DNA of 31,830 bases, taken from contig JANNFW010000526.1 of NCBI GenBank assembly GCA_031380235.1, positions 1-31,830 of the forward strand, given 5' to 3'. Each line of letters begins with the position of its first letter. Position 1 is the first letter of the stretch. The notes under the pieces are model-generated. The model was not told the origin of the DNA. It worked only from the letters and a program-made list of their open reading frames with translations, and searched no databases. Of the stretch, positions 7,125-18,754 are shown piece by piece. Both the position numbers and the translations under genes were made by a program. The stretch is from Rhodoferax sp. Its GTDB lineage: Bacteria; Pseudomonadota; Gammaproteobacteria; Burkholderiales; Burkholderiaceae_C.

Positions 7125-8159
7125 ATGCTTAGTACCGAATCCATCGAAACCTTATTGAGCCCGATCAGTGAGGCGCTGCCCAGTGGCGATGATCTTGAGT
7201 ACGATGCCGCGTTTACTGCGCTGGAGGCTGAAGCGCAGCCTAAGGCCGAGCAGCAGTTTGGCGACACGCTCATCCCCGCAGTCGAACCTGAATGGCGCGC
7301 CTTGACGGGTCGCGCCACCGACTTGTTGAAACGCTCCAAAGATGTGCGGCTTGGCGTTCTCGCACTTCGCGCTGCCACCCGCACGCAAGGTCTTGAAGGG
7401 TTTTCGTTGGGGCTCACGTTGCTGGTGGGGTTGGTCGACCGGTTTTGGGACACGCTGCACCCTCAGCTGGATGCGGAAGACGATAACGACCCGACCATGC
7501 GAATGAATGCGTTGGCACCCCTGTCCGATTCCGGCATGGTGCTGCGCGACCTGTACGATTGCGTGCTAGGCACCTCCCGCGCGGTCGGCGCCATTCGGGT
7601 ACGCGACGTTGCCATAGCCCACAACAAGCTCACAGCATCGGGCAAAGACCCCGCTTACTCCCTGCCCCAAGTGACAGACGCCCTGCTGGACATCTACACT
7701 GCGACCCCGAATGTGTTTGACCTTGCCATTGGCGCGGCGGCGCTGGCACAACAGCTCGAAGCACTCATCGAGGCCAAGACCGGCAGAGGTGACCAGATCG
7801 ACCTCAAACCGCTGCGCGCCCTCACCCATTTGTTGCGCACTGTCTGCCAGGCCACTGTCACCGCTGCGAACCCGCAAGCGGCGCAAGCCGCCGAAGCAGA
7901 GGCTGACGGCAACCCTGCCCCCGGCGCTGCGCGTGCGGCGGGCGGCCCGATGCGTGGAGAGATCAGCACCCGCCAGGATGCGTTGCAAATGCTCGACAAG
8001 GTGATTGCCTTTCTGGAAAAAACGGAGCCGGGCAATCCAGCACCCATGTTGATCAAGCGCGCCAAACGCTTGGTAGGCGTGAGCTTTATCGATATCATGA
8101 ACGATCTTGCCCCCGACGCGATCAACAGTATTCAAAACATCACTGGCAAACCAGTCTAG
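7125..8159 (+). CDS. tssA: T6SS TssA (ImpA N-terminal domain, short type)
   Basis: LLSPIS...SGDDLEYD...F..LE, LLKRSKDVRL and WDTLHPQLD (ImpA_N); C-terminal ISTRQDALQML...EPGNPAPMLIKRAKRL; precedes tssB. Confidence 0.93.
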   Translation: MLSTESIETLLSPISEALPSGDDLEYDAAFTALEAEAQPKAEQQFGDTLIPAVEPEWRALTGRATDLLKRSKDVRLGVLALRAATRTQGLEGFSLGLTLLVGLVDRFWDTLHPQLDAEDDNDPTMRMNALAPLSDSGMVLRDLYDCVLGTSRAVGAIRVRDVAIAHNKLTASGKDPAYSLPQVTDALLDIYTATPNVFDLAIGAAALAQQLEALIEAKTGRGDQIDLKPLRALTHLLRTVCQATVTAANPQAAQAAEAEADGNPAPGAARAAGGPMRGEISTRQDALQMLDKVIAFLEKTEPGNPAPMLIKRAKRLVGVSFIDIMNDLAPDAINSIQNITGKPV

Positions 8160-8233
8160 TCCCGCACCCTGAACCAAGTTTATTCAAACCTGCACTATCC
8201 GCATCATTTCGTCAACCAACCAAGGAAGTCACC

Positions 8234-8749
8234 ATGGCCGCCAGCAGTCAAAAGTTCGTCGCCCGCAACCGGGCGCCCCGCGTTCAAATTGAATACGACG
8301 TCGAGCTCTACGGGGCGCAGAAGAAGGTGCAGTTGCCGTTCATCATGGGCGTGCTGGCCGACCTGTCTGGCAAGCCTGCAGACCCCCTGGCCCCGGTGGC
8401 TGACCGCAAGTTTCTGGAAATCGACACGGACAATTTCGACTCCCGCATGAAGGCCATGAAGCCCCGCGCAGCCTTCTCAGTGCCCAACGCACTGACAGGC
8501 GAGGGCGACATGAAGGTCGACATCAGTTTTGACAGCATGGACGACTTCTCGCCGGCCAACGTGGCCCGCAAGGTGGATTCACTCAAAAAACTCCTTGAAG
8601 CCCGCACGCAGCTGTCGAACCTGGTGACCTACATGGACGGCAAGACTGGCGCCGAGGATCTGCTTGCCAAAGTGATGGAAGACCCGGCACTGCTGCAAAC
8701 CCTCGCCAGCAGTAAAAAAGCAGAAGATGCCACGCCTCCTGCCGCCTGA
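8234..8749 (+). CDS. tssB: T6SS contractile sheath small subunit TssB (VipA)
   Basis: SSQKFVARNRAPRVQIEYDVE...LPFIMGVLADLSG...MDDFSPANVA. Confidence 0.97.
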   Translation: MAASSQKFVARNRAPRVQIEYDVELYGAQKKVQLPFIMGVLADLSGKPADPLAPVADRKFLEIDTDNFDSRMKAMKPRAAFSVPNALTGEGDMKVDISFDSMDDFSPANVARKVDSLKKLLEARTQLSNLVTYMDGKTGAEDLLAKVMEDPALLQTLASSKKAEDATPPAA

Positions 8750-8808
8750 GCTCCACCCATCTGAACTGTTCCAATCCGTATTGAACCCTAAAAAAGAGGA
8801 CTATCACC

Positions 8809-10305
8809 ATGGCTGAAAAACTGGCCCAAGACACCGCACTACCCGGCGTTACCTTTGAAGGCGGAGACTTTGCATCGCTGCTGCAAAAAGAATTTAAACC
8901 CAGCAGCAACGAGGCGAAAAGTGCCGTCGAAGCGGCTGTGCAAACCCTGGCACAGCAGGCGCTGGGCCAAACCCAGTTGATTGGCAAAGACGTCACCAAA
9001 TCTATCAACGCCATGATTGCGGCAATTGATGAAAAGCTGAGCGCCCAACTCAACCTGATATTGCACAACCCGGATTTTCAAAAGCTTGAAGGTGCCTGGC
9101 GCGGCCTGCACTACATGGTGAACAATACTGAGTCGGATGAGCACCTGAAAATCCGCGTGATGAACATCTCCAAGCTGGATCTGGGCAAGACGCTCAAGCG
9201 ATTCAAGGGCGCTGCCTGGGACCAAAGCCCACTGTTCAAGAAAGTGTACGAAGAGGAGTATGGTCAATTTGGCGGCGAACCCTTTGGCGCCATCGTCGGC
9301 GACTACCATTTTGACCAAAGCCCGCCTGATATCGAGCTGTTGGGCGAGATGGCCAAAATTGCGGCCTCCGCGCATGCGCCTTTCATCACCGGGGCGGGTC
9401 CATCCCTCATGCAGATGGAGTCTTGGCAAGAATTGGCCAATCCGCGCGATTTGACCAAAATCTTCTCTACGCCCGAGTACGCTGGCTGGCGCAGCCTGCG
9501 TGAGTCGGATGACTCCAAATACCTGGGCATGTGCATGCCGCGCTTTTTGGCTCGCACGCCCTACGGTGCTAAGACCAACCCGGTGGAAGAATTTGATTTT
9601 GAAGAAGACACGGCCGGGGCCGACCATAGCAAGTACGCTTGGGCCAACGCAGCCTACGCCATGGCCACCAACATCAACCGTTCATACAAGCAGTACGGCT
9701 GGGGCTCACGCATTCGCGGCATTGAATCTGGCGGTGCCGTGGAAAACCTGCCGCTGCACACCTTCCCAACAGACGACGGTGGCGTAGATCAAAAGTGCCC
9801 CACTGAGATCGCCATCAGCGACCGGCGCGAAGCTGAATTGTCCAAGGCCGGGTTGTTGTCGCTCATCCACCGCAAAAACTCTGACTTTGCCGCCTTCATC
9901 GGTTCGCAGTCGTTGAACAAACCCACAGAGTACGACGACCCTGATGCGACCGCCAATGCCAACTTGGCCGCGCGCCTGCCTTACTTGTTTGCCTGCAACC
10001 GTTTTGCGCACTACCTCAAGTGCATCGTGCGCGACAAAATCGGCAGCTTCAAAGAGAAAGACGAAATGCAGCGCTGGCTGAACAAGTGGATCATGAACTA
10101 CGTGGATGGCGACCCGGTCAACTCGTCAGAAGACACCAAGGCCAGGCGTCCGCTTGCAGCCGCTGAAGTGGTGGTGGAAGAGATTGAGGGCAACCCCGGC
10201 TACTACAGCAGCAAGTTCTTTTTGCGCCCGCATTACCAGCTTGAAGGCCTCACGGTGTCGTTGCGCCTGGTCTCCAAATTGCCATCGGCCAAGGGGGGCA
10301 AATAA
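8809..10305 (+). CDS. tssC: T6SS contractile sheath large subunit TssC (VipB)
   Basis: ILHNPDFQKLEGAWRGL, EEEYGQFGGEP, RGIESGGAVENLP, KCPTEIAISDRRE and FFLRPHYQLEGL motifs. Confidence 0.98.
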   Translation: MAEKLAQDTALPGVTFEGGDFASLLQKEFKPSSNEAKSAVEAAVQTLAQQALGQTQLIGKDVTKSINAMIAAIDEKLSAQLNLILHNPDFQKLEGAWRGLHYMVNNTESDEHLKIRVMNISKLDLGKTLKRFKGAAWDQSPLFKKVYEEEYGQFGGEPFGAIVGDYHFDQSPPDIELLGEMAKIAASAHAPFITGAGPSLMQMESWQELANPRDLTKIFSTPEYAGWRSLRESDDSKYLGMCMPRFLARTPYGAKTNPVEEFDFEEDTAGADHSKYAWANAAYAMATNINRSYKQYGWGSRIRGIESGGAVENLPLHTFPTDDGGVDQKCPTEIAISDRREAELSKAGLLSLIHRKNSDFAAFIGSQSLNKPTEYDDPDATANANLAARLPYLFACNRFAHYLKCIVRDKIGSFKEKDEMQRWLNKWIMNYVDGDPVNSSEDTKARRPLAAAEVVVEEIEGNPGYYSSKFFLRPHYQLEGLTVSLRLVSKLPSAKGGK

Positions 10306-10429
10306 ATATTTGCTAGTCTTTTAATCCGCAACTGCATACTCGTTATCTACTTAGCTGCTTGGTTTCCTGCCTTGGGCACCTGACTCGGCGGTCGTATTTT
10401 TAACCCTCTTTTTTTTAAAGGTGAACATC

Positions 10430-10918
10430 ATGGCAATTGACATGTTTTTGGAGGTAGAAGGCATTCCAGGTGAATCGATCGATAGCGTACACAAAGGTCA
10501 TATCAGCTTGTTGGCCTGGAGTTGGGGCGCTTCCCAGAGCGGGAGCACGCATCTTGGCCCTGGCGGCGGCTCTGGCAAAGTGAACGTGCAGGACTTGTCG
10601 TTCACAAAGTATGTGGACGAGGCGTCACACCTACTTTTGTTGAATTGTTGCAATGGCACCCATATTCCCAAAGCCGTCCTGACCATCCGAAAGGCGGGAG
10701 GTACCGCGCCGCTGGATTACGTGGTGTTGACTTTGAACGATATTATTGTGAGCAGCGTCAGCACCGGCGGAAGCGGCGGTGAAGATCGTTTAACCGAAAA
10801 CGTCTCGCTGAACTTCGCCAAGTTTAAGTTTGAATACACGAAGCAGAAAGCCGACGGAAGCGCCGATGGCGGCCCTAAGCCCGCTGGCTGGAATATTCCA
10901 AAGAACGAGAAAGTCTGA
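10430..10918 (+). CDS. hcp: T6SS tube protein Hcp (TssD)
   Basis: MAIDMFLEVEGIPGES...SWSWG-like LAWSWG...QDLSFTKYVDEAS...TENVSLNFAKFKFEY; start placed at the ATG at 10430 after an AAAGG RBS. Confidence 0.97.
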   Translation: MAIDMFLEVEGIPGESIDSVHKGHISLLAWSWGASQSGSTHLGPGGGSGKVNVQDLSFTKYVDEASHLLLLNCCNGTHIPKAVLTIRKAGGTAPLDYVVLTLNDIIVSSVSTGGSGGEDRLTENVSLNFAKFKFEYTKQKADGSADGGPKPAGWNIPKNEKV

Positions 10919-11293
10919 GTTTGACAAAAGGAAGGTGTGCGGCATCACAGCATGCCTCACTCGATCCTCGGTTGTTTTTTCGATAGAGATTCGATATGAC
11001 AATATCTACGCACCGCTTCAACACTGCCCGTCTTCTTTTGATCGCCGCAGGAAGCGCCACCGCCAGCGCCTGCCATCCCAAACATGGGGGTGATGCATGG
11101 CCCGATGCACATGGCATCAGTTTGCTGCGTGAAGCTAGGGACGAGTTCAACAAGTTGACTGAGCCGCTGCGGACGCAAAAGAGAAACGTTGTCATCAATG
11201 CAGCAGCTGGAATGGGCATCGCAGCCTGGTAGTTCGCTACGTGCTGCTACCGCCAAATTCAGTTGCGATCGCGGTGGCGAGGGACTCAAGCCT

Positions 11294-13624
11294 TCACTGC
11301 CCCGTCCCACTGTCCAGAAACGCTGCCCAAAAATACGGATGCGGCTTTTTGCGCATCAATTGCTCCTGCGCCTCTGCCAGCGCCCTAGCCACCGGCGTTC
11401 CTCTTTTCAAACTGGCATACATCAGCCTTGACAATTCGGCCGTAGCGTCGTCGTCTACCTCCCACAGCGAGCCGACCACGTTTTGCGCGCCGGCGTATAA
11501 AAATCCCCGTGTGAGCCCCACCACATCGTCACCGCTGCTGATGCTACCTAGCCCGGTCTCGCACGCGGACAGCATCACCAGATTGGCACTCAGGCGCAGG
11601 CCGTAGATTTCGCTCACGCTGAGCATGCCGTCGTTCCTGTCGTCAGTTGCCAGCTTCAGCCTTGACTCTAATGGCGCATCGGCTGAAAACTCGCCATGCG
11701 ATGCCACGTGAATGTGCGAAAAATCATAGGCCCGTTCTTTTAGCAGTGTTTCAGTCGCGGCGCGGCGCACGAAGAGTTCACTGGTTTTGGCAAACATGGC
11801 TTGCAAATCCTGCGCTTCTATCTGCGCGGAAGGCAAGTCCAGAGCCGCCTGGCCCAAGTCGGGGTTGCCCAAAATGAGGAGCCGGTTGACCGGGTCTTTG
11901 GTAGAGGCAGAAAAGGCACGCGCCTCGGGCATCAGGCCCAACAGCATGGCCGAAGGCAAGTAGCGCAGCGACCGCCCTTGCACTAAAAATTTCTCGCCAT
12001 CGTGCAGCGCTGCAAAGGGCACATAGTGCAGGCTGCCATGCGGCACGATCAACAGGTCGCGGCCCGCAATGCTGCTTTGCATGGGGCGAAGCAAGCGCTT
12101 GTACAGCAGCTCACCGAGTTCCCGGGTTTGGCGACGGCGCTTCTTAATGGACTGCACAAACTCGCTGACATCGTCTGTCAGCCCATTGCCGTCCAACTGA
12201 AAAATACGGATCTCTGCACCTGCCAGGGTGTAGCCATACAGGGTACTGCCAGACGAAAAGAAGCCTACCAGGGTTTCCTGGGGCCCCAGCCCCGCAGCCA
12301 TCCGCTGCACGCTGACGCTGCCTGAGGTGATGAGTGATGCCAACTGGGGTGCGAGGGTTTGCAGACGGATGGCGGCCTGGTTCATCAGGCCGCTCAACTC
12401 TGCGCGGCGCGCCACATTGGTGTCGGGCACTTGGATCGACAGCTCTGCGTCAATGCGCTGAAACTCCGCAAACGCCGTAGCAATTTCAGGTGCTCGCTGG
12501 CCGTAAATGCCGAAGTCAGACTTGGTGGCCAGCATGTCCACCAGCGCGCGTGACTTGGCCTGCTCGGCCACCTCCAACACTTGGGCCTTGTTGCCCAGTC
12601 TCAACGCGGTTCGCACTATGCCGTGGTACACCGCCTGTTTGTCGCTGGCAAACCCGATCTTGCTGGTTTCGGTGCGGATGGAGCGGCGCTGCCCCTCCAC
12701 CAAGTCACGTGCTTTGCGAAAGTATTCCAGGGCCTTTTCGGTTTGCCCATCGCGCTCGGCGATGCGACCGCGCTCATACAGCACCTGCCAGTAAATCTCA
12801 GCATTCACGGTCAATTCTGGTGTGGCCAGCAGCTTGTCAAAGCCCGCCCGTGCCGGGTCTAGCCGACCCACCTCGAGCTGGGCCTTGTGCATCATGAAAG
12901 CGCGCGGCAGTTCGGTCCATACCCAATTGTTGCGTCCGGTAAAAGCCGCGCCAGACAGCAGGTTGTCGAGCATCATGTCAAAGCGAAACGATGCATCGCT
13001 GGATTCCAGCGTCACAATTACATCGGCCCAGGCCCCAATGGCCATTTGGGCGCGGGCCAGTGCCATTGCTTTGGCACGCTTGTAGTCGCTGCGAACGTTA
13101 TAGCCTTTCAGCAACTCGACGGTTTGGCGTGCTGCGGTGGGATCGCCCTGCAATGCCACCGCTACGGCCACCGCTGCGTAGGCACCGACCACCATGTCTT
13201 CGTCGCTGCTGTTTTCTTTGCGCAGCCACACCAGCGCATCATTGGCTTGCTTGCGGGCTTCTGCGTACTGTCCCAGGTCGGTCAAGGCTTCTGCCCGCAT
13301 CAGGTGGATGGCGGGCGTGGCATCATCCAGGCCAAAAATCCGCGTGCGCCGGTCGCCTTTGGCCACCAGCGTCTGCAACTGGTTCAGGCAGGGCAGCAGG
13401 CGCTCGTAGCGTTTGAGCTTGGAATAGGCAAAACACAAGGCATGCTGGTCGCGCGTGCGAAGCGGCCCCTGCTTGGCCAACGCCTCCACCTGCTTCTCTA
13501 TCAGATCGTAGCGGCCAGAGCCCGCATACCCGGTTTGATCGGTGCCATAGTCAGCCTGGGCAACCATGGCCGCCGCAGCCAGCAGCGTGGCGGCAAACCA
13601 TCTAAGCGACGGGTGCTGCTGCAT
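11294..13624 (-). CDS. Exported TPR + CHAT-domain (caspase-like, clan CD) cysteine protease
   Basis: Sec-type signal peptide (RWFAATLLAAAAMVAQA); several TPR-like helical repeats; AEQAKSRALVDML linker; CHAT motifs LLIVPHGSLHYVPFAAL, HIHVASHG (His codon 11696-11698), VMLSACETG (Cys codon 11561-11563), SLWEVDD and HPYFWAAF. Confidence 0.92.
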   Translation of the reverse strand: MQQHPSLRWFAATLLAAAAMVAQADYGTDQTGYAGSGRYDLIEKQVEALAKQGPLRTRDQHALCFAYSKLKRYERLLPCLNQLQTLVAKGDRRTRIFGLDDATPAIHLMRAEALTDLGQYAEARKQANDALVWLRKENSSDEDMVVGAYAAVAVAVALQGDPTAARQTVELLKGYNVRSDYKRAKAMALARAQMAIGAWADVIVTLESSDASFRFDMMLDNLLSGAAFTGRNNWVWTELPRAFMMHKAQLEVGRLDPARAGFDKLLATPELTVNAEIYWQVLYERGRIAERDGQTEKALEYFRKARDLVEGQRRSIRTETSKIGFASDKQAVYHGIVRTALRLGNKAQVLEVAEQAKSRALVDMLATKSDFGIYGQRAPEIATAFAEFQRIDAELSIQVPDTNVARRAELSGLMNQAAIRLQTLAPQLASLITSGSVSVQRMAAGLGPQETLVGFFSSGSTLYGYTLAGAEIRIFQLDGNGLTDDVSEFVQSIKKRRRQTRELGELLYKRLLRPMQSSIAGRDLLIVPHGSLHYVPFAALHDGEKFLVQGRSLRYLPSAMLLGLMPEARAFSASTKDPVNRLLILGNPDLGQAALDLPSAQIEAQDLQAMFAKTSELFVRRAATETLLKERAYDFSHIHVASHGEFSADAPLESRLKLATDDRNDGMLSVSEIYGLRLSANLVMLSACETGLGSISSGDDVVGLTRGFLYAGAQNVVGSLWEVDDDATAELSRLMYASLKRGTPVARALAEAQEQLMRKKPHPYFWAAFLDSGTGQ

Positions 13625-13649
13625 GGCATCCCCTTCAACTGGCGGTGAG

Positions 13650-14906
13650 TCAGAACCAGTAGTTCACGTTGAGCGAAACACCCCTGCTGTCCTTGGCTTG
13701 CTGCAATGCCAGCGTAGCACGCAGAAAGCTGCGCGCTGACAAGGCATTTTTATTAGTGCCAAGCGAAATGGTGATCTCCTGGGAATTATTTTGGTACAGG
13801 GTTGTACCTGACAGCCGTGTGTCAGACACACCGTACTCGATCGACATTTTGCTGCCGCCAAAACTGACAGGCTGGCTCACAAACAGGCCGTTCACAAGTG
13901 CTGTGGTACGAATGTTGGGGTCAAGGGAATCCTTCAAACCGGGTGGGTTGAAGGTTTGGTAGTAGCCCAGCATGTTGCCCATTGTCAAATCGAAACTGTC
14001 AAACTCCCACGTATAGGTACTTGCAAGCGAGCCGTGAACCACGCCCACAAAAAAAGCAGCGTCTGCTGAGGCCGCCAGGCTCACGCCCAGCATGGGTGTC
14101 AGCACCCAGGCATCGGACATCGGGAAGCGGTAACCAGCAGCCAGGCGCGCCTGGTAAGACTTGCTGCCTGCTGAATCCAGCGCACCGAACGATGCGCGCA
14201 GCAGCGCCTGCCGGCGGGGGTCGATGTCATTGCGTACCGTGTAGGACAGAGGGACAGAAATGCTTTGCACTGTGGCATCACCCACCGAATGGCTGCTCAG
14301 CAACACAGCCGCGCCTATGACGCTTTGCGATCCTTGCGACGCATTGCCTTGCGACGTTGCAATGCGCGTGGCGCTCTCAGTAAAGCTGCTCGAAAAGTCA
14401 CCCATGATGGCCTGGCCCATGACTCCACCTGTCCCCGCAATGGGGCTCAGCGGCGAAACTGCGGCCTGGCGCCGTTGCAAGTCGCCATAAAGCTGGGGGT
14501 TATCACGGAAATAGTCTCGCAACAATATTGCGCTTTCTGTCCGGTTGATTCCCGTGAACGACTGGTTCACCCCGATGTCTGGTATCTGCAACGTCAACGT
14601 TGTGCTGCCACTGGCATAACCGACCAGGGTAGTGACACCCAACAGGCGTAAATTGCTCGACACCGCTGAGTTCTCTGTATAACCGGGGAACTGAACGCCG
14701 ACATCACGAATTGCAGCCTCGTAAAATTTTTCCAAGCTGTCACGGCATACCTCCTGTGTGGAGCCGTCTGAGGTGATCGTCGCCCCAAACAGAGTGTTGC
14801 AGGCCGCTTGAGCGAGCGTGGGTACCGCACACGCGAGTGCGCTTGCAACGCAAAACGCTGCTTTTGCGCGTGACGCGCGAGGGTGACGGCCGATTTTGCT
14901 TTTCAT
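13650..14906 (-). CDS. Hypothetical outer-membrane beta-barrel protein (autotransporter-barrel-like)
   Basis: AAGGAG RBS; signal peptide ending AQA; C-terminal ~230 aa of alternating amphipathic strands (YQARLAAGYRF, LTMGNMLGYY, MSIEYGV) ending in VSLNVNYWF, the aromatic-X-Phe OMP C-terminal signature. Exact family not recognised. Confidence 0.65.
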   Translation of the reverse strand: MKSKIGRHPRASRAKAAFCVASALACAVPTLAQAACNTLFGATITSDGSTQEVCRDSLEKFYEAAIRDVGVQFPGYTENSAVSSNLRLLGVTTLVGYASGSTTLTLQIPDIGVNQSFTGINRTESAILLRDYFRDNPQLYGDLQRRQAAVSPLSPIAGTGGVMGQAIMGDFSSSFTESATRIATSQGNASQGSQSVIGAAVLLSSHSVGDATVQSISVPLSYTVRNDIDPRRQALLRASFGALDSAGSKSYQARLAAGYRFPMSDAWVLTPMLGVSLAASADAAFFVGVVHGSLASTYTWEFDSFDLTMGNMLGYYQTFNPPGLKDSLDPNIRTTALVNGLFVSQPVSFGGSKMSIEYGVSDTRLSGTTLYQNNSQEITISLGTNKNALSARSFLRATLALQQAKDSRGVSLNVNYWF

Positions 14907-14962: not shown

Positions 14963-15733
14963 CTATTTGCTACCCATCATTTGCGTGACTTCGTCTTCAG
15001 CGTGAGCCCAAAGCGTGAGCGCTGTGTAGTTGTCATGGTCTGGCTTTGCGTTGGCGCGAACGCTCTCGTCCAACTGCTTGACCCAAATGCTTGGGCTGGC
15101 CGCCGCTTTCAACAGGCTTTCAAGCGACGCATCGCCCACCGGCTCCCACACGCCATCACTGCACAGCAGCAGCACATCGCCCGGCAGCAGCTTCATGGGC
15201 TCTGAGACAGTCAAGTCGAGGTCTGCTTCGGAACTCCCGAGTGCGGACAGCAACAGATTGCGCTGCGGATGCAGGCGTGCGCCTTCGTCGTCAATCATGC
15301 CACTGGCCACCATCTGCTGCACCAGGCTGTGATCTGTGGTGCGGGCAAATGCCTTGCCGTCCCTGAACAGATAAGCCCGGCTGTCGCCGCAGTGCGCCCA
15401 CATCAGTGCGTCACTGTGCAGGTCGATCACTGCCAGCACCACCGTGGTTCGCATGCCTGCCAGATTGCCCCCCTCGCTTTGGCGAGCCACTACCGCTGCA
15501 TTGGCGCGCAGCAACAGGGCACGCAAGCCGCCAATGCTGATCTCCGGCTGAACCGAAAAACCCTCCAGGATGGTGGTGCGTGCAATGTGAGCAGCGACAT
15601 CTCCACCGCCGTGTCCCCCCGCACCATCGGCCACTAGACAGGCAACATACTGCCCGTCGTTCCACTGCCCATGCACATCTTCGTTGTAGTTGCGCCCGCC
15701 TTGCTGGGAGAGAGTAACGATTTCGACTTCCAC
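14963..15733 (-). CDS. pppA: PP2C-family Ser/Thr phosphatase (T6SS PppA/TagG-like)
   Basis: GRNYNED, VADGAGGHGGGDVA, AHCGDSRAY, RTTDHS, LLCSDG and DNYT motifs; immediately downstream of fha. Confidence 0.9.
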   Translation of the reverse strand: MEVEIVTLSQQGGRNYNEDVHGQWNDGQYVACLVADGAGGHGGGDVAAHIARTTILEGFSVQPEISIGGLRALLLRANAAVVARQSEGGNLAGMRTTVVLAVIDLHSDALMWAHCGDSRAYLFRDGKAFARTTDHSLVQQMVASGMIDDEGARLHPQRNLLLSALGSSEADLDLTVSEPMKLLPGDVLLLCSDGVWEPVGDASLESLLKAAASPSIWVKQLDESVRANAKPDHDNYTALTLWAHAEDEVTQMMGSK

Positions 15734-15747
15734 GTGGTTCTTCCAAG

Positions 15748-17310
15748 CTATTTTTCAGACTGAAAACGCGCCATCTGTTCGTCATAAGCGGCGGCAAACG
15801 CCTTGCCAAACAGCGTATGAAAATCGTCCTCAGCCTCCGTGGCAATGCCCGCATACAGTTTGCAAAACTGGTCCCACAGTTTTGCTTTTCTGCTGGCGCT
15901 GAAAATCTCGTCAAACCTGGACTTTTCTGTCAGCCGCTTTTCAAGCTTTTCAGGGGTAAAAAGCCCCAGTACGTGCGAAAGCGCCGCGCGCATGCCCACC
16001 ATCACGCCAAACTGGTGGGCTCGAAGGTCGGCATAGGCGTTGTTCATGGCATCTTCGGCCTCCATAAACCCCCTCACCCGGGGTCCCAGCATGTGCGCCA
16101 GCGCCACCTCGGCGTTGGGAGAAAACTTCAATGGGTTATTGGCCTCAGCAGAGATCATCGTGACTTCGGAATGCACGGTCCGCTTGAACTCTTGGCGTGA
16201 CAACAGAAGCTGCAAAGTACCATGGGTGGCTGTGTGCAACATGGCACCCACGCGCTCCATCAGCTCCGGGGTCAGCTTAGCCGGCATTTGATGGGTGCTT
16301 TTGACCCCCCGTAAAAAAGCCGCCAACAATTCAGTGTCGGTTGCAGTACCGGTTTGCGCAGCTACGGCAGTCACAGCAGCCGGTATCGGAGCAGCTTTCG
16401 CTACCGGTGGAGTCGGCGCATCGGCAGATCGCGTGGCCAATGCGGGCGCTGGCGCAGGACTGGGCTTTGCGCTGACGGCTGCTGGCAAAGCAAATGCCTG
16501 CTGCAGCATGGGCACATGGTCGCTGCGGCTGGCCGCTGTAGCTTTGGGCCCATGGCCCAGCAAGGCATCCAGAGGGTCGGCAGACGATGCCGTGTTAGGT
16601 TGAAACAAAGGGCTGGCCAGAGGCGACTGCGCCAGCGGATCACCCCCACCCGTTGCTGGTCCCAAGCCAAACAGATCGTCAATGCTGGATGAGCCGGCGT
16701 TGGGCAGCCCCTCAAAGGCGTTACTGCCAACAGAAGGCGGCCTTGCCCCTCCACCACCTTCGAAGCCCATCAAGTCGCCAAATGGGTCTGCCTCGCCTGG
16801 TTTTGAAGGTGGCGTATCCAGCCCCATCGGATCCGGGAAAAATTCTGGCTTGGCAGGTGTGGCGGCAGGGCGGGCGACTGGCGCAGGTGCCAAGCCCACC
16901 ATCAAATCAGCAAATGGATCATCAGCATTACTAGGCTTGGCCGACGTCAGCCTTGCTGCGCCTGTCGGCAAATCGTCCAGCAGGGAACCGTTGCCTGTGC
17001 TGTCGGCGTGGCTCACCGTCAATTCAAAGCTGCCAATTTGCAAGCGGTCACCGTTTGCCAGTGGTGCCTCATTGCCCAACCCCAAAGAGAGCCCGTTATG
17101 GGACAACGGGTTGCTGCCCCGGTCAATGATGAAAAAAGCCCCATTGCGGCAGAGCACTTGTGCATGCACTCGAGACACCGTGCGGTCCGGGTCGTCCAGC
17201 ACCAGCAGGTTAGTGTTCGAGCGACCAATGCTGCCACCGCTGTCGTCAAACTCAGCAGCGAGTCCACCCCCAACAACCTCTCCGCGCATGCTGACGACCG
17301 CAATTTTCAT
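15748..17310 (-). CDS. tagH: T6SS-associated FHA-domain protein TagH/Fha
   Basis: N-terminal FHA (SIGRS...VSRVHA...IIDRGSN), Pro/Ala-rich linker, C-terminal NNPLKFS...DLRAHQFG...FGKAFAAAYDEQ typical of T6SS Fha. Confidence 0.93.
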   Translation of the reverse strand: MKIAVVSMRGEVVGGGLAAEFDDSGGSIGRSNTNLLVLDDPDRTVSRVHAQVLCRNGAFFIIDRGSNPLSHNGLSLGLGNEAPLANGDRLQIGSFELTVSHADSTGNGSLLDDLPTGAARLTSAKPSNADDPFADLMVGLAPAPVARPAATPAKPEFFPDPMGLDTPPSKPGEADPFGDLMGFEGGGGARPPSVGSNAFEGLPNAGSSSIDDLFGLGPATGGGDPLAQSPLASPLFQPNTASSADPLDALLGHGPKATAASRSDHVPMLQQAFALPAAVSAKPSPAPAPALATRSADAPTPPVAKAAPIPAAVTAVAAQTGTATDTELLAAFLRGVKSTHQMPAKLTPELMERVGAMLHTATHGTLQLLLSRQEFKRTVHSEVTMISAEANNPLKFSPNAEVALAHMLGPRVRGFMEAEDAMNNAYADLRAHQFGVMVGMRAALSHVLGLFTPEKLEKRLTEKSRFDEIFSASRKAKLWDQFCKLYAGIATEAEDDFHTLFGKAFAAAYDEQMARFQSEK

Positions 17311-17389: not shown

Positions 17390-17626
17390 ACATTCAAACC
17401 GCGAGCAGCGCCCTCGACACCCGCCAGCAGTGAAGCAAAGCATGCGCTTGACCCGCACGCCAATATAATCTATGCCTTGCCTCCATGTTGTGTCTTAGGC
17501 CGAAAAAATCGTTGCCATTCCGTTCCTCTCAGCACTGCTTAACGCCTCCACCTACGGCCCGGTTGAAGTGCCTGGCAATTTGCCGAATCGGAAGCTCGCC
17601 GAAATGATCAACGAGTAGATCGGTGG

Positions 17627-18028
17627 TTATGGTGCCAGCAACAGTACTAAAGCTTGACTCGGCACAATGCGCACTCCTGGGCAATTTGTGCTGTTTTGAA
17701 GCGCAACACTGGTCATGCGTGTCGCTGGCATTCCTTGAAACAACACTGTAAAAGCGCCGGTCAGATGGCGGCTTGGCCCCATCACCGTGCCAGACGCAAC
17801 ACCTGTTGCCAACCCCGCATTGTCGCCATTGGTCATGGGAATACTCGTGCCCAAATTGTGCGCGGGCATGCCCATGATCAGGATCGTTGGGCAATTGGGT
17901 ATTGCCATAGGTCCCATCGCAATGTTTGGGTACGGAATCGGTATGGGCGCGGGAGCCGGTGGGGCTGGGGTTAAACAGACATCGGGGAAGCCCATGTCGG
18001 TTCCCATCATTTGACAATTGGCGAACAT
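17627..18028 (-). CDS. Stand-alone PAAR-like DUF4150 spike-tip protein (TagD-like)
   Basis: 133 aa; FPDVCLTP...PIPYPN...GDNAG...GVASGT...VLFQGMPATR...N are DUF4150 hallmarks; no C-terminal toxin extension. Confidence 0.92.
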   Translation of the reverse strand: MFANCQMMGTDMGFPDVCLTPAPPAPAPIPIPYPNIAMGPMAIPNCPTILIMGMPAHNLGTSIPMTNGDNAGLATGVASGTVMGPSRHLTGAFTVLFQGMPATRMTSVALQNSTNCPGVRIVPSQALVLLLAP

Positions 18029-18058
18029 TGAGCTCTCCGGTACTGGTTTGACTGGGAT

Positions 18059-18754
18059 TCATCCAAAATGGATTTGTGCACCCCGGGCCTTGATGAGGTT
18101 TTGCCCATTGAGCAGCAAGTGCTCGCCCGAGATACGGGCCAACTGCTGTGCCTCGCATTCCAGGTGTGTGGCCTGCACCCGGTCGATACCTTCGGTGGTG
18201 CGCAAATGGCTTCGACTGAAATGGCTGACGCGGTCGAAGACCGTCGATAGCATCGACCCTACGGCTTTAACAGCGGTACCGATCAGATGCAAGTCTTTGC
18301 CAATAAACTGCGCTTCGCCAGCGGTCACCGTCGCCTTGTCGGCGCGCAACAAAAAATCAGTGGTTTGAAGCGCCAGAGCAGGCGCCGCCAGCGTTAGCGC
18401 GCCCGCTTCAACCTCGATGCGTGTTGGCCCTGGGCAGCGCAGCACATAGACGGTTTCGCTACCCATTTCCGCCGTAGCTTCTTCGCGCTGGAGCACTGCA
18501 AGCACCCAAGCCTCATCGGGTGCCACGAGCAAGCAAGCCACCGTGTCACCGACCCTGGGCACCAGTAGACAACTGGCTGCTCGGCGCACGCGCGCTTGCA
18601 GCGTGCCACTGCTCAGAGTGAAGTCATCGCCATCGCACGCAGAGATCAGGCCGACGCAATGGCGCGCCGGGGTTGGCTGGGCGGCTCCCGCTTGGCTGCG
18701 TGGGTTGGTTTTAGGGCGCTGGCGTGGGCTCTTAACGGTAGTGGGGGCGGTCAT
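18059..18754 (-). CDS. DUF3540-family protein (TagC-like)
   Basis: VRRAASCLLVPRVGDTV...AWVLAVL and C-terminal ..GEHLLLNGQNLIKARGAQIHFG; position between pentapeptide and DUF4150 genes. Start moved to the ATG at 18754 because the track start overlaps the upstream gene. Confidence 0.85.
   Translation of the reverse strand: MTAPTTVKSPRQRPKTNPRSQAGAAQPTPARHCVGLISACDGDDFTLSSGTLQARVRRAASCLLVPRVGDTVACLLVAPDEAWVLAVLQREEATAEMGSETVYVLRCPGPTRIEVEAGALTLAAPALALQTTDFLLRADKATVTAGEAQFIGKDLHLIGTAVKAVGSMLSTVFDRVSHFSRSHLRTTEGIDRVQATHLECEAQQLARISGEHLLLNGQNLIKARGAQIHFG

Follow-up and report, generated by a model that had tools for sequence, protein, structure and literature searches.

A pair of adjacent genes, encoding a 418-aa outer-membrane β-barrel protein and a 776-aa Sec-exported TPR-CHAT protease, is found within a type VI secretion system (T6SS) cluster of Rhodoferax sp. 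(GenBank assembly GCA_031380235.1, contig JANNFW010000526.1, positions 1 to 31,830; 'the window' hereafter denotes this whole stretch of 31,830 nucleotides). The pair is an autonomous, patchily distributed two-gene cassette inserted into this T6SS lineage, a conserved and horizontally mobile envelope unit of many beta- and some gamma-proteobacteria. The role proposed here, to which a probability of roughly 0.45 is attached, is that of an outer-membrane-docked periplasmic protease feeding receptors with DUF4384 or CHASE2 sensor domains, in this organism the PpkA/PppA/Fha switch. The component parts are of known kinds, whereas their pairing and wiring appear new: the literature searched contained no description of an exported CHAT protein paired with an autotransporter-type barrel, nor of CHAT or caspase input to PpkA, in keeping with the proposal of a preliminary description of the region that the pair constitutes an undescribed envelope-located unit.

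Architecture of the barrel and CHAT proteins

The genes fha, pppA and those for the 418-aa and 776-aa proteins run head to tail on the minus strand with intergenic gaps of 14, 56 and 25 nt, respectively. A terminator scan of the region returned a count equal to shuffled expectation, with no terminator-like site inside the three gaps, and the start codons of both the 418-aa and 776-aa genes are preceded by Shine-Dalgarno motifs; with terminator-free gaps and ribosome-binding motifs in place, co-transcription of the four genes is plausible. The co-directional arrangement, the lack of an evident terminator, the paired Sec signals ending in AQA (residues 24 and 34 of the CHAT and barrel proteins), the intact CHAT catalytic residues and the barrel itself had all been put forward in the preliminary description, and each was confirmed, from the open reading frames (ORFs), the DNA, alignments or structural models.

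The 776-aa protein belongs to the clan CD CHAT proteases (PF12770), having the His-Cys dyad and N-terminal TPR repeats of that class, with TPR_2 scoring above its Pfam cut-off; its signal peptide is followed by a conserved mature N-terminus and then by a TPR/helical region. The catalytic residues His643 and Cys688 are invariant across 23 homologues down to 29% identity, as are Cys64 and Cys79, and a signal-like N-terminal segment is present in nearly all aligned CHAT homologues. Judged from the alignments, the invariant cysteines of the CHAT protein and a near-invariant Cys36 of the barrel protein fit an oxidising compartment, and Cys64 and Cys79 would fit a disulfide in an exported protein. 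The nearest solved relatives by sequence are the Csx29 craspase proteases (CHAT domain only, E about 1e-8). Within the T6SS-embedded clade described below, CHAT surpasses Fha, PppA and the barrel in conservation, with identities of 84–96% among the Polaromonas and closest Rhodoferax members and about 72% for more distant Rhodoferax.

An AlphaFold2 model of the 418-aa protein (predicted local distance difference test (pLDDT) 84, predicted template modelling score 0.79) features 12 strands preceded by helices, with the autotransporter β-domains of EstA, BrkA, EspP, Hbp and NalP as top Foldseek matches (E 1e-8 to 1e-9). The match to the autotransporter β-domain family PF03797 is weak (23.7 bits, below the cut-off of 26) and that to TIGR01414 lies just above its cut-off (18 bits against 16); a profile of the barrel family found no match among solved structures by sequence. 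Helices at residues 162–183 stand before strand 1 in the model and may correspond to the pore-occupying linker helix of type Va autotransporters. The N-terminal domain folded alone (pLDDT 76) had no fold match in the PDB (best E 0.3), matched only uncharacterised proteins in the AlphaFold DB, and returned nothing from the ESM Atlas. Nearly all of the 30 aligned barrel homologues carry a signal-like N-terminal segment; a lipoprotein reading was ruled out, the cysteine after the signal peptide standing at variable spacing and without a lipobox.

The most conserved stretch of the barrel family is the almost invariant motif PLSYTVRNDIDPRRQ, whose invariant columns run from P219 to Q233 across the 30 homologues down to 34% identity (strand limits taken from the AlphaFold2 model, coordinates checked against the DNA). 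By strand parity in a barrel with a periplasmic C-terminus, the motif would cover the first periplasmic turn, in which Asp and Arg residues are invariant; Asp170-Phe171 of the linker are likewise invariant. Invariance of a periplasmic turn is unusual among outer-membrane proteins and suggests a periplasmic partner; PLSYTVRNDIDPRRQ is a candidate docking or recognition site.

An autonomous cassette

A pattern scan covering one genome per prokaryotic species yielded 66 barrel loci from other genomes, which were examined by searches with the window proteins and by clustering of all ORFs. A CHAT gene lies adjacent on the same strand at 46 of the 66, in Comamonadaceae, Rhodocyclaceae, Oxalobacteraceae and Sulfuricellaceae, and at one Chromatiaceae locus with 26% barrel identity. 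In Giesbergeria, Propionivibrio and Azonexus the pair stands among housekeeping genes, and a search for TssC in the genomes of these carriers did not find it. Since most pairs lie outside T6SS loci and some carriers have no sheath gene, the pair is an autonomous unit. Distant barrel homologues (below 32% identity; Chromatium, Thalassolituus, Oligoflexia and Haemophilus) are mostly without a conserved partner, and therefore give little information on function. At two loci from Hydrogenophaga/Burkholderiaceae metagenome-assembled genomes (MAGs; L024 7875-11194 and L030; loci are numbered with L, genomes with G and contigs with C), a barrel gene ends a tssE-tssF-tssG-clpV string, after the gene of a 684-aa SdrD_B-like protein; at L024 a convergent gap gene follows the barrel gene, which is thus without a CHAT partner.

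Recurrent neighbours of the pair

The pair has been recruited beside fha-pppA on two independent occasions, once in the Rhodoferax/Polaromonas T6SS clade that includes the window and once in Rhodocyclaceae, as indicated by different arrangements, by separate positions in the CHAT tree and by rejection of a single origin. The order fha-pppA-barrel-CHAT, converging on hcp, occurs in only 14 loci, all from Rhodoferax, Polaromonas or Comamonadaceae; those with a full-length CHAT protein (13 tree rows including the window) group in a single clade with full support and a long stem. The block is retained though neighbouring T6SS genes vary, and hcp is its constant right-hand neighbour throughout the clade; in Polaromonas bin75, urease genes occupy the place of tssBC, yet the block including hcp is intact. 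In two Rhodocyclaceae MAGs, the pair is divergent from an operon ppkA-Tll0287/HAMP-OmpA-pppA-fha, which encodes a T6SS-type Fha and has no structural genes of a T6SS in its vicinity. The CHAT proteins of these Rhodocyclaceae form a clade separate from the T6SS clade, and joining the two was rejected by the AU test (p 0.0012), for a group named after the tree was seen.

More broadly, the pair tends to adjoin transmembrane signalling proteins with extracytoplasmic sensor domains, namely DUF4384 kinases or caspases and CHASE2 cyclases. A genome has only one or two DUF4384 genes, and several genomes have no copy other than that adjoining the pair. In six separate lineages (L025, L041, L048, L053–55, L056, L089 and probably L049) such a gene stands within 10 kb of the pair, encoding kinase-transmembrane-DUF4384 proteins (L041, and L089 directly after the pair), caspase C14-DUF4384 proteins (L025, L053–55) or other DUF4384 proteins (L048, L056); at L049 a homologue of the L089 kinase directly follows the pair, and the contig ends before the DUF4384 part. 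The PpkA kinase of the window's own T6SS, encoded on a second contig of the same genome (C611), has the same kinase-transmembrane-DUF4384 arrangement, with DUF4384 as its periplasmic domain, as the Ser/Thr kinase (STK) of the Polaromonas T6SS in G092, ordered ...tssM-tagF-STK(DUF4384)-mltA-x-x-hcp2-tagJ-tssE.... In four fairly complete genomes of the T6SS clade (G052, G235, G357 and G092), the only DUF4384 gene, or one of two, is located in the T6SS cluster of the pair, 21–24 kb upstream of it, and is the PpkA kinase in G092; three Rhodoferax genomes have a single DUF4384 gene, 21–23 kb upstream of the barrel gene and on its strand. Proximity of DUF4384 in six non-T6SS lineages and in the T6SS clade is far above expectation at a chance of ∼0.5–1% per genome, by a rough post-hoc estimate for which lineages were counted after the data were seen and which is uncorrected for phylogeny.

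CHASE2 adenylate/guanylate cyclases are found near the pair in nine loci, a weaker signal than that of DUF4384 because three to six copies occur per genome, and OmpA-like proteins recur near it in eight. In six loci (L042 16797-17669, L043 12052-12777, L050, L047, L058 and L070), the CHASE2 cyclase is accompanied by a protein of ∼240–290 aa that matches no Pfam family. Massilia sp. Leaf139 (G403) has only one DUF4384 gene (C1:994808-999645), ∼4 kb from tssC, and its barrel-CHAT pair is on a different contig; the occurrence of DUF4384 kinases in T6SS clusters thus reaches into Oxalobacteraceae.

Comparison with known systems

TagQRST feeds the PpkA/PppA/Fha1 switch of the Pseudomonas aeruginosa H1-T6SS, and the present pair resembles it in that outer-membrane and periplasmic proteins encoded beside fha, pppA and ppkA are proposed to pass an envelope cue to a transmembrane Ser/Thr kinase. 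In contrast to TagQRST, a 12-stranded barrel takes the place of the outer-membrane lipoprotein, a TPR-CHAT protease forms the periplasmic part, no ABC transporter is involved, the kinase ectodomain is DUF4384, and the unit also exists without a T6SS. None of the TagQ lipoprotein, TagR or TagS/TagT ABC transporter domains was detected in either protein or in the window, so that the analogy is functional only.

A second parallel is DdvA of Myxococcus xanthus, a periplasmic TPR-CHAT protein in signalling (PMC11506125), which shares with the 776-aa protein a His-Cys dyad and, as proposed for the latter, a periplasmic location and a use in signal transduction. Unlike DdvA, which is membrane-anchored and has a cytoplasmic zinc-binding anti-sigma domain, the CHAT protein here has a cleavable signal peptide, neither a transmembrane nor an anti-sigma segment, and a barrel partner; no sequence match to DdvA was obtained at E 0.01. 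The TPR-CHAT protease Csx29 cuts Csx30, one group of which has a C-terminal DUF4384 domain (bioRxiv 10.1101/2022.08.17.504292), a combination paralleled by the CHAT-DUF4384 neighbourhood described above. Csx29 is a cytoplasmic, RNA-guided component of type III-E craspase without an export signal, whereas the 776-aa protein is exported; the Csx29 model NF041237 gives 63 bits, far under its cut-off of 300, and no CRISPR genes (gRAMP/Cas7-11 neighbour) were found in the window.

The 418-aa protein shares with type Va autotransporters (EstA, NalP, BrkA and EspP) a Sec signal, a C-terminal 12-stranded barrel after helices and a C-terminal aromatic residue. It differs in its passenger, which is only ∼115 aa, of unrecognised fold and neither a beta-helix nor an enzyme, in its sub-threshold PF03797 score and in its neighbouring protease gene. 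From two-partner (Vb) exporters, with POTRA domains and a 16-stranded Omp85 barrel, it is distinguished by 12 strands and by the lack of any POTRA or Omp85 match.

Proposed mechanism and its alternatives

All functional proposals for the pair draw on genomic context. Beyond export and joint encoding, each step is inferred: co-transcription, periplasmic residence of the protease, its contact with the barrel, the targeting of DUF4384 and any influence on the T6SS. The barrel product would be a mini-autotransporter and the CHAT product a soluble Sec-exported caspase-like protease, the unit having been inserted, in the Rhodoferax/Polaromonas lineage, behind the fha-pppA of a T6SS whose PpkA has a periplasmic DUF4384 domain. 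The barrel may hold or gate the protease on the inner side of the outer membrane via the invariant periplasmic turn; an envelope cue would free or activate the protease, which could then bind or clip the DUF4384 domain of PpkA, altering Fha phosphorylation and hence T6SS assembly. Elsewhere, a CHASE2 or DUF4384 receptor would take the part of PpkA as target, and the pair as a whole would be a functional analogue of TagQRST without homology to it. A complex prediction combining mature CHAT (25–776) with the PpkA periplasmic region (436–646), run without controls, scored 0.00 and speaks neither for nor against binding. An extension of this proposal, which is rather unlikely, holds that clan CD (CHAT, caspase) proteases in general recognise DUF4384 or have it as a substrate domain, and that barrel-CHAT acts as a proteolytic sensor of outer-membrane damage, triggering the T6SS through the DUF4384 domain of PpkA; by analogy, this would parallel the cutting of DUF4384-bearing Csx30 by Csx29, and a caspase relative would perform the opening step of a bacterial reply to contact or danger.

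Several observations weigh against a signalling role in the T6SS. No T6SS gene is detectable within 10 kb at 30 of the 46 pairs; the barrel is present in only 5 of 400 sampled genomes of the window's bacterial family; and a homologous T6SS of Variovorax paradoxus with the same kinase has no pair, fha-pppA being followed after about 1.3 kb by hcp. In Giesbergeria sinuosa the pair is present with neither a T6SS nor a DUF4384 gene, so that neither is an obligatory partner and the core activity would be self-contained, its output partners optional. The DUF4384 estimate is, as stated, post-hoc, and signalling genes in general are common, so that only rare families (DUF4384, T6SS-type Fha) weigh statistically. 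The sequencing runs containing the window sequence are all sediment or freshwater DNA metagenomes, and none is RNA. The preliminary description had named an occurrence of homologous pairs mostly outside T6SS loci as grounds for refutation, and such is the distribution observed; together with the hosts without TssC and the Variovorax cluster, it leaves a T6SS-specific module unsupported. Its suggestion of a sensor into the PpkA/PppA/Fha switch survives in part, indirectly favoured by the two recruitments beside fha-pppA, the DUF4384 neighbours and the DUF4384 domain of PpkA, and opposed by the location of the pair mostly outside T6SS loci.

One alternative is a passenger module without a T6SS role, performing a self-contained envelope job and inserted at a permissive fha-pppA operon end. 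This explanation is doubtful but to be taken seriously; in its favour stand the unrelated housekeeping contexts of most pairs, carriers without a T6SS and the mere 1.3 kb at the corresponding Variovorax position. Caspase-like proteases often cleave the product of a neighbouring gene, and the protease might thus cut the N-domain or linker of the barrel protein itself, for which the invariant Asp170-Phe171 and the Asp and Arg residues of the turn could be cleavage sites, or might serve outer-membrane quality control. Such a passenger would not account readily for two independent recruitments beside fha-pppA in differing arrangements, for the stability of the block across the T6SS clade despite changing neighbours, or for a kinase in this very T6SS bearing DUF4384, a rare domain that recurs beside the pair. 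Envelope insult is known to elicit a response from the H1-T6SS switch of P. aeruginosa, and a function in defence, overlapping with the signalling role favoured here, can be envisaged in which a surface-exposed barrel N-domain senses and the periplasmic TPR-CHAT protein fires on attack, with a kinase, a cyclase, a caspase-DUF4384 protein or, in the window, T6SS counter-attack as output. This danger or phage sensor, as proposed for DdvA, a phage-defence regulator with a periplasmic TPR-CHAT region (PMC11506125), would suit the caspase C14-DUF4384 neighbours and a patchy distribution resembling horizontal transfer. It is nevertheless improbable: the neighbourhoods of the pair are not defence islands, it has no known trigger, and PADLOC gave only generic matches (CHAT, kinase and caspase domains), so that no catalogued defence system is indicated. 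Least probable is type V-like export, also raised in the preliminary description, in which the barrel carries the CHAT protease across the outer membrane to act outside alongside the T6SS. The strict adjacency of the two genes, and the presence among the Foldseek matches of FapF, a 12-stranded barrel of similar fold that exports a separate substrate, could be read in this sense; nothing was found in favour of delivery itself. The barrel has an N-domain and linker helices of its own, like classical autotransporters, which carry only their own passenger; it has no POTRA or two-partner secretion domains, its strongest conservation falls on a periplasmic turn, and such a pore is unlikely to accommodate a folded TPR-CHAT protein of 750 aa.

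The T6SS cluster of the window

The window is an entire contig (C94) of an 81%-complete MAG, whose closest relatives are Rhodoferax and Polaromonas MAGs. Its minus-strand gene string converging on hcp comprises tssE, tssF, tssG, clpV, vgrG, a DUF2169-pentapeptide gene, a pentapeptide gene, a DUF3540 gene, a Tox-PAAR-like gene, fha/tagH, pppA and the 418-aa and 776-aa genes (coordinates in Table 1). The end of tagJ overlaps contig C611 (L096) of the same genome, joining both contigs, and the gene order there is tagJ-hcp2-x-x-mltA-STK(transmembrane, DUF4384)-tagF-tssM-tssL-tssK, including an Hcp-like gene, two unknown genes, an MltA-like lytic transglycosylase and a tssL with an OmpA domain. With this continuation the T6SS is complete and holds a full threonine-phosphorylation set, bearing out the earlier placement of the pair within a T6SS.

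Several features of the cluster and genome may be recorded alongside. The Tox-PAAR-like gene is a real gene between DUF3540 and fha; a 209-aa ORF overlapping it (17529-18158) has no family match and is probably spurious. Between hcp and the CHAT gene's end lies the 78-codon ORF, whose conservation extends no further than the closest relative (L010, 88%). A second CHAT-domain gene of the same genome is located on contig C183 (L002), and a second DUF4384 gene, truncated where contig C48 (L102) ends, lies beside a Fic-family gene. In the Variovorax paradoxus cluster, a 653-aa Peptidase_C14 caspase is encoded between mltA and tagJ (L097 15737-17698); this gene is absent from the window's cluster, where the CHAT pair occurs instead, and one clan CD protease may have been swapped for another.

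Table 1. Coordinates of features in the window
Feature	Position	Strand	Remarks
tssA, tssB, tssC, hcp	7125-10918	+	
hcp	10421..10918	+	convergent with CHAT gene
78-codon ORF	10996-11232	+	lipoprotein-like N-terminus
776-aa Sec-exported TPR-CHAT protease gene	11294..13624	-	
CHAT domain, residues 502-773	11306-12121	-	PF12770, E 2.6e-68
Cys688 codon (SACETG)	11561-11563	-	verified in DNA
His643 codon (ASHG)	11696-11698	-	verified in DNA
CHAT-protein signal peptide, ending AQA at residue 24	13553-13624	-	
418-aa outer-membrane protein gene	13650..14906	-	
12-stranded autotransporter-type barrel, residues 196-417, ending NYWF	13653-14321	-	
Almost invariant motif PLSYTVRNDIDPRRQ, residues 219-233	14208..14252	-	end of strand 2, predicted first periplasmic turn, start of strand 3
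Barrel-protein helical linker	14322-14456	-	helices at residues 162-183
Barrel-protein alpha/beta N-domain, ∼115 aa (about residues 35-150)	14457-14804	-	
Barrel-protein signal peptide, residues 1-34, ending AQA	14805-14906	-	
pppA, PP2C Ser/Thr phosphatase	14963-15733	-	Pfam/NCBIfam; 56 nt upstream of barrel gene
fha/tagH, T6SS-type FHA protein (FHA and T6SS_FHA_C domains)	15748-17310	-	TIGR03354, 260 bits (Pfam, NCBIfam)
Tox-PAAR-like protein, 133 aa	17627-18028	-	PF13665, E 1.8e-40
tagJ/impE, final 27 codons	31748..31828	-	at window edge

Significance

To our knowledge, the coupling of T6SS firing to the state of the envelope is understood only for the TagQRST-PpkA pathway of P. aeruginosa. 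Should the proposed role hold, proteolytic input would represent a new logic for this switch, with a barrel and a periplasmic caspase-like enzyme acting on the ectodomain of a kinase. It would also provide a first function for DUF4384, a widespread, uncharacterised domain that occurs in fusion with kinases, with caspases and with some Csx30 proteins. Even if the link to the T6SS proves incidental, the pair represents an undescribed conserved envelope module, one through which many proteobacteria of freshwater and soil would harbour a seemingly active relative of caspases in their periplasm.

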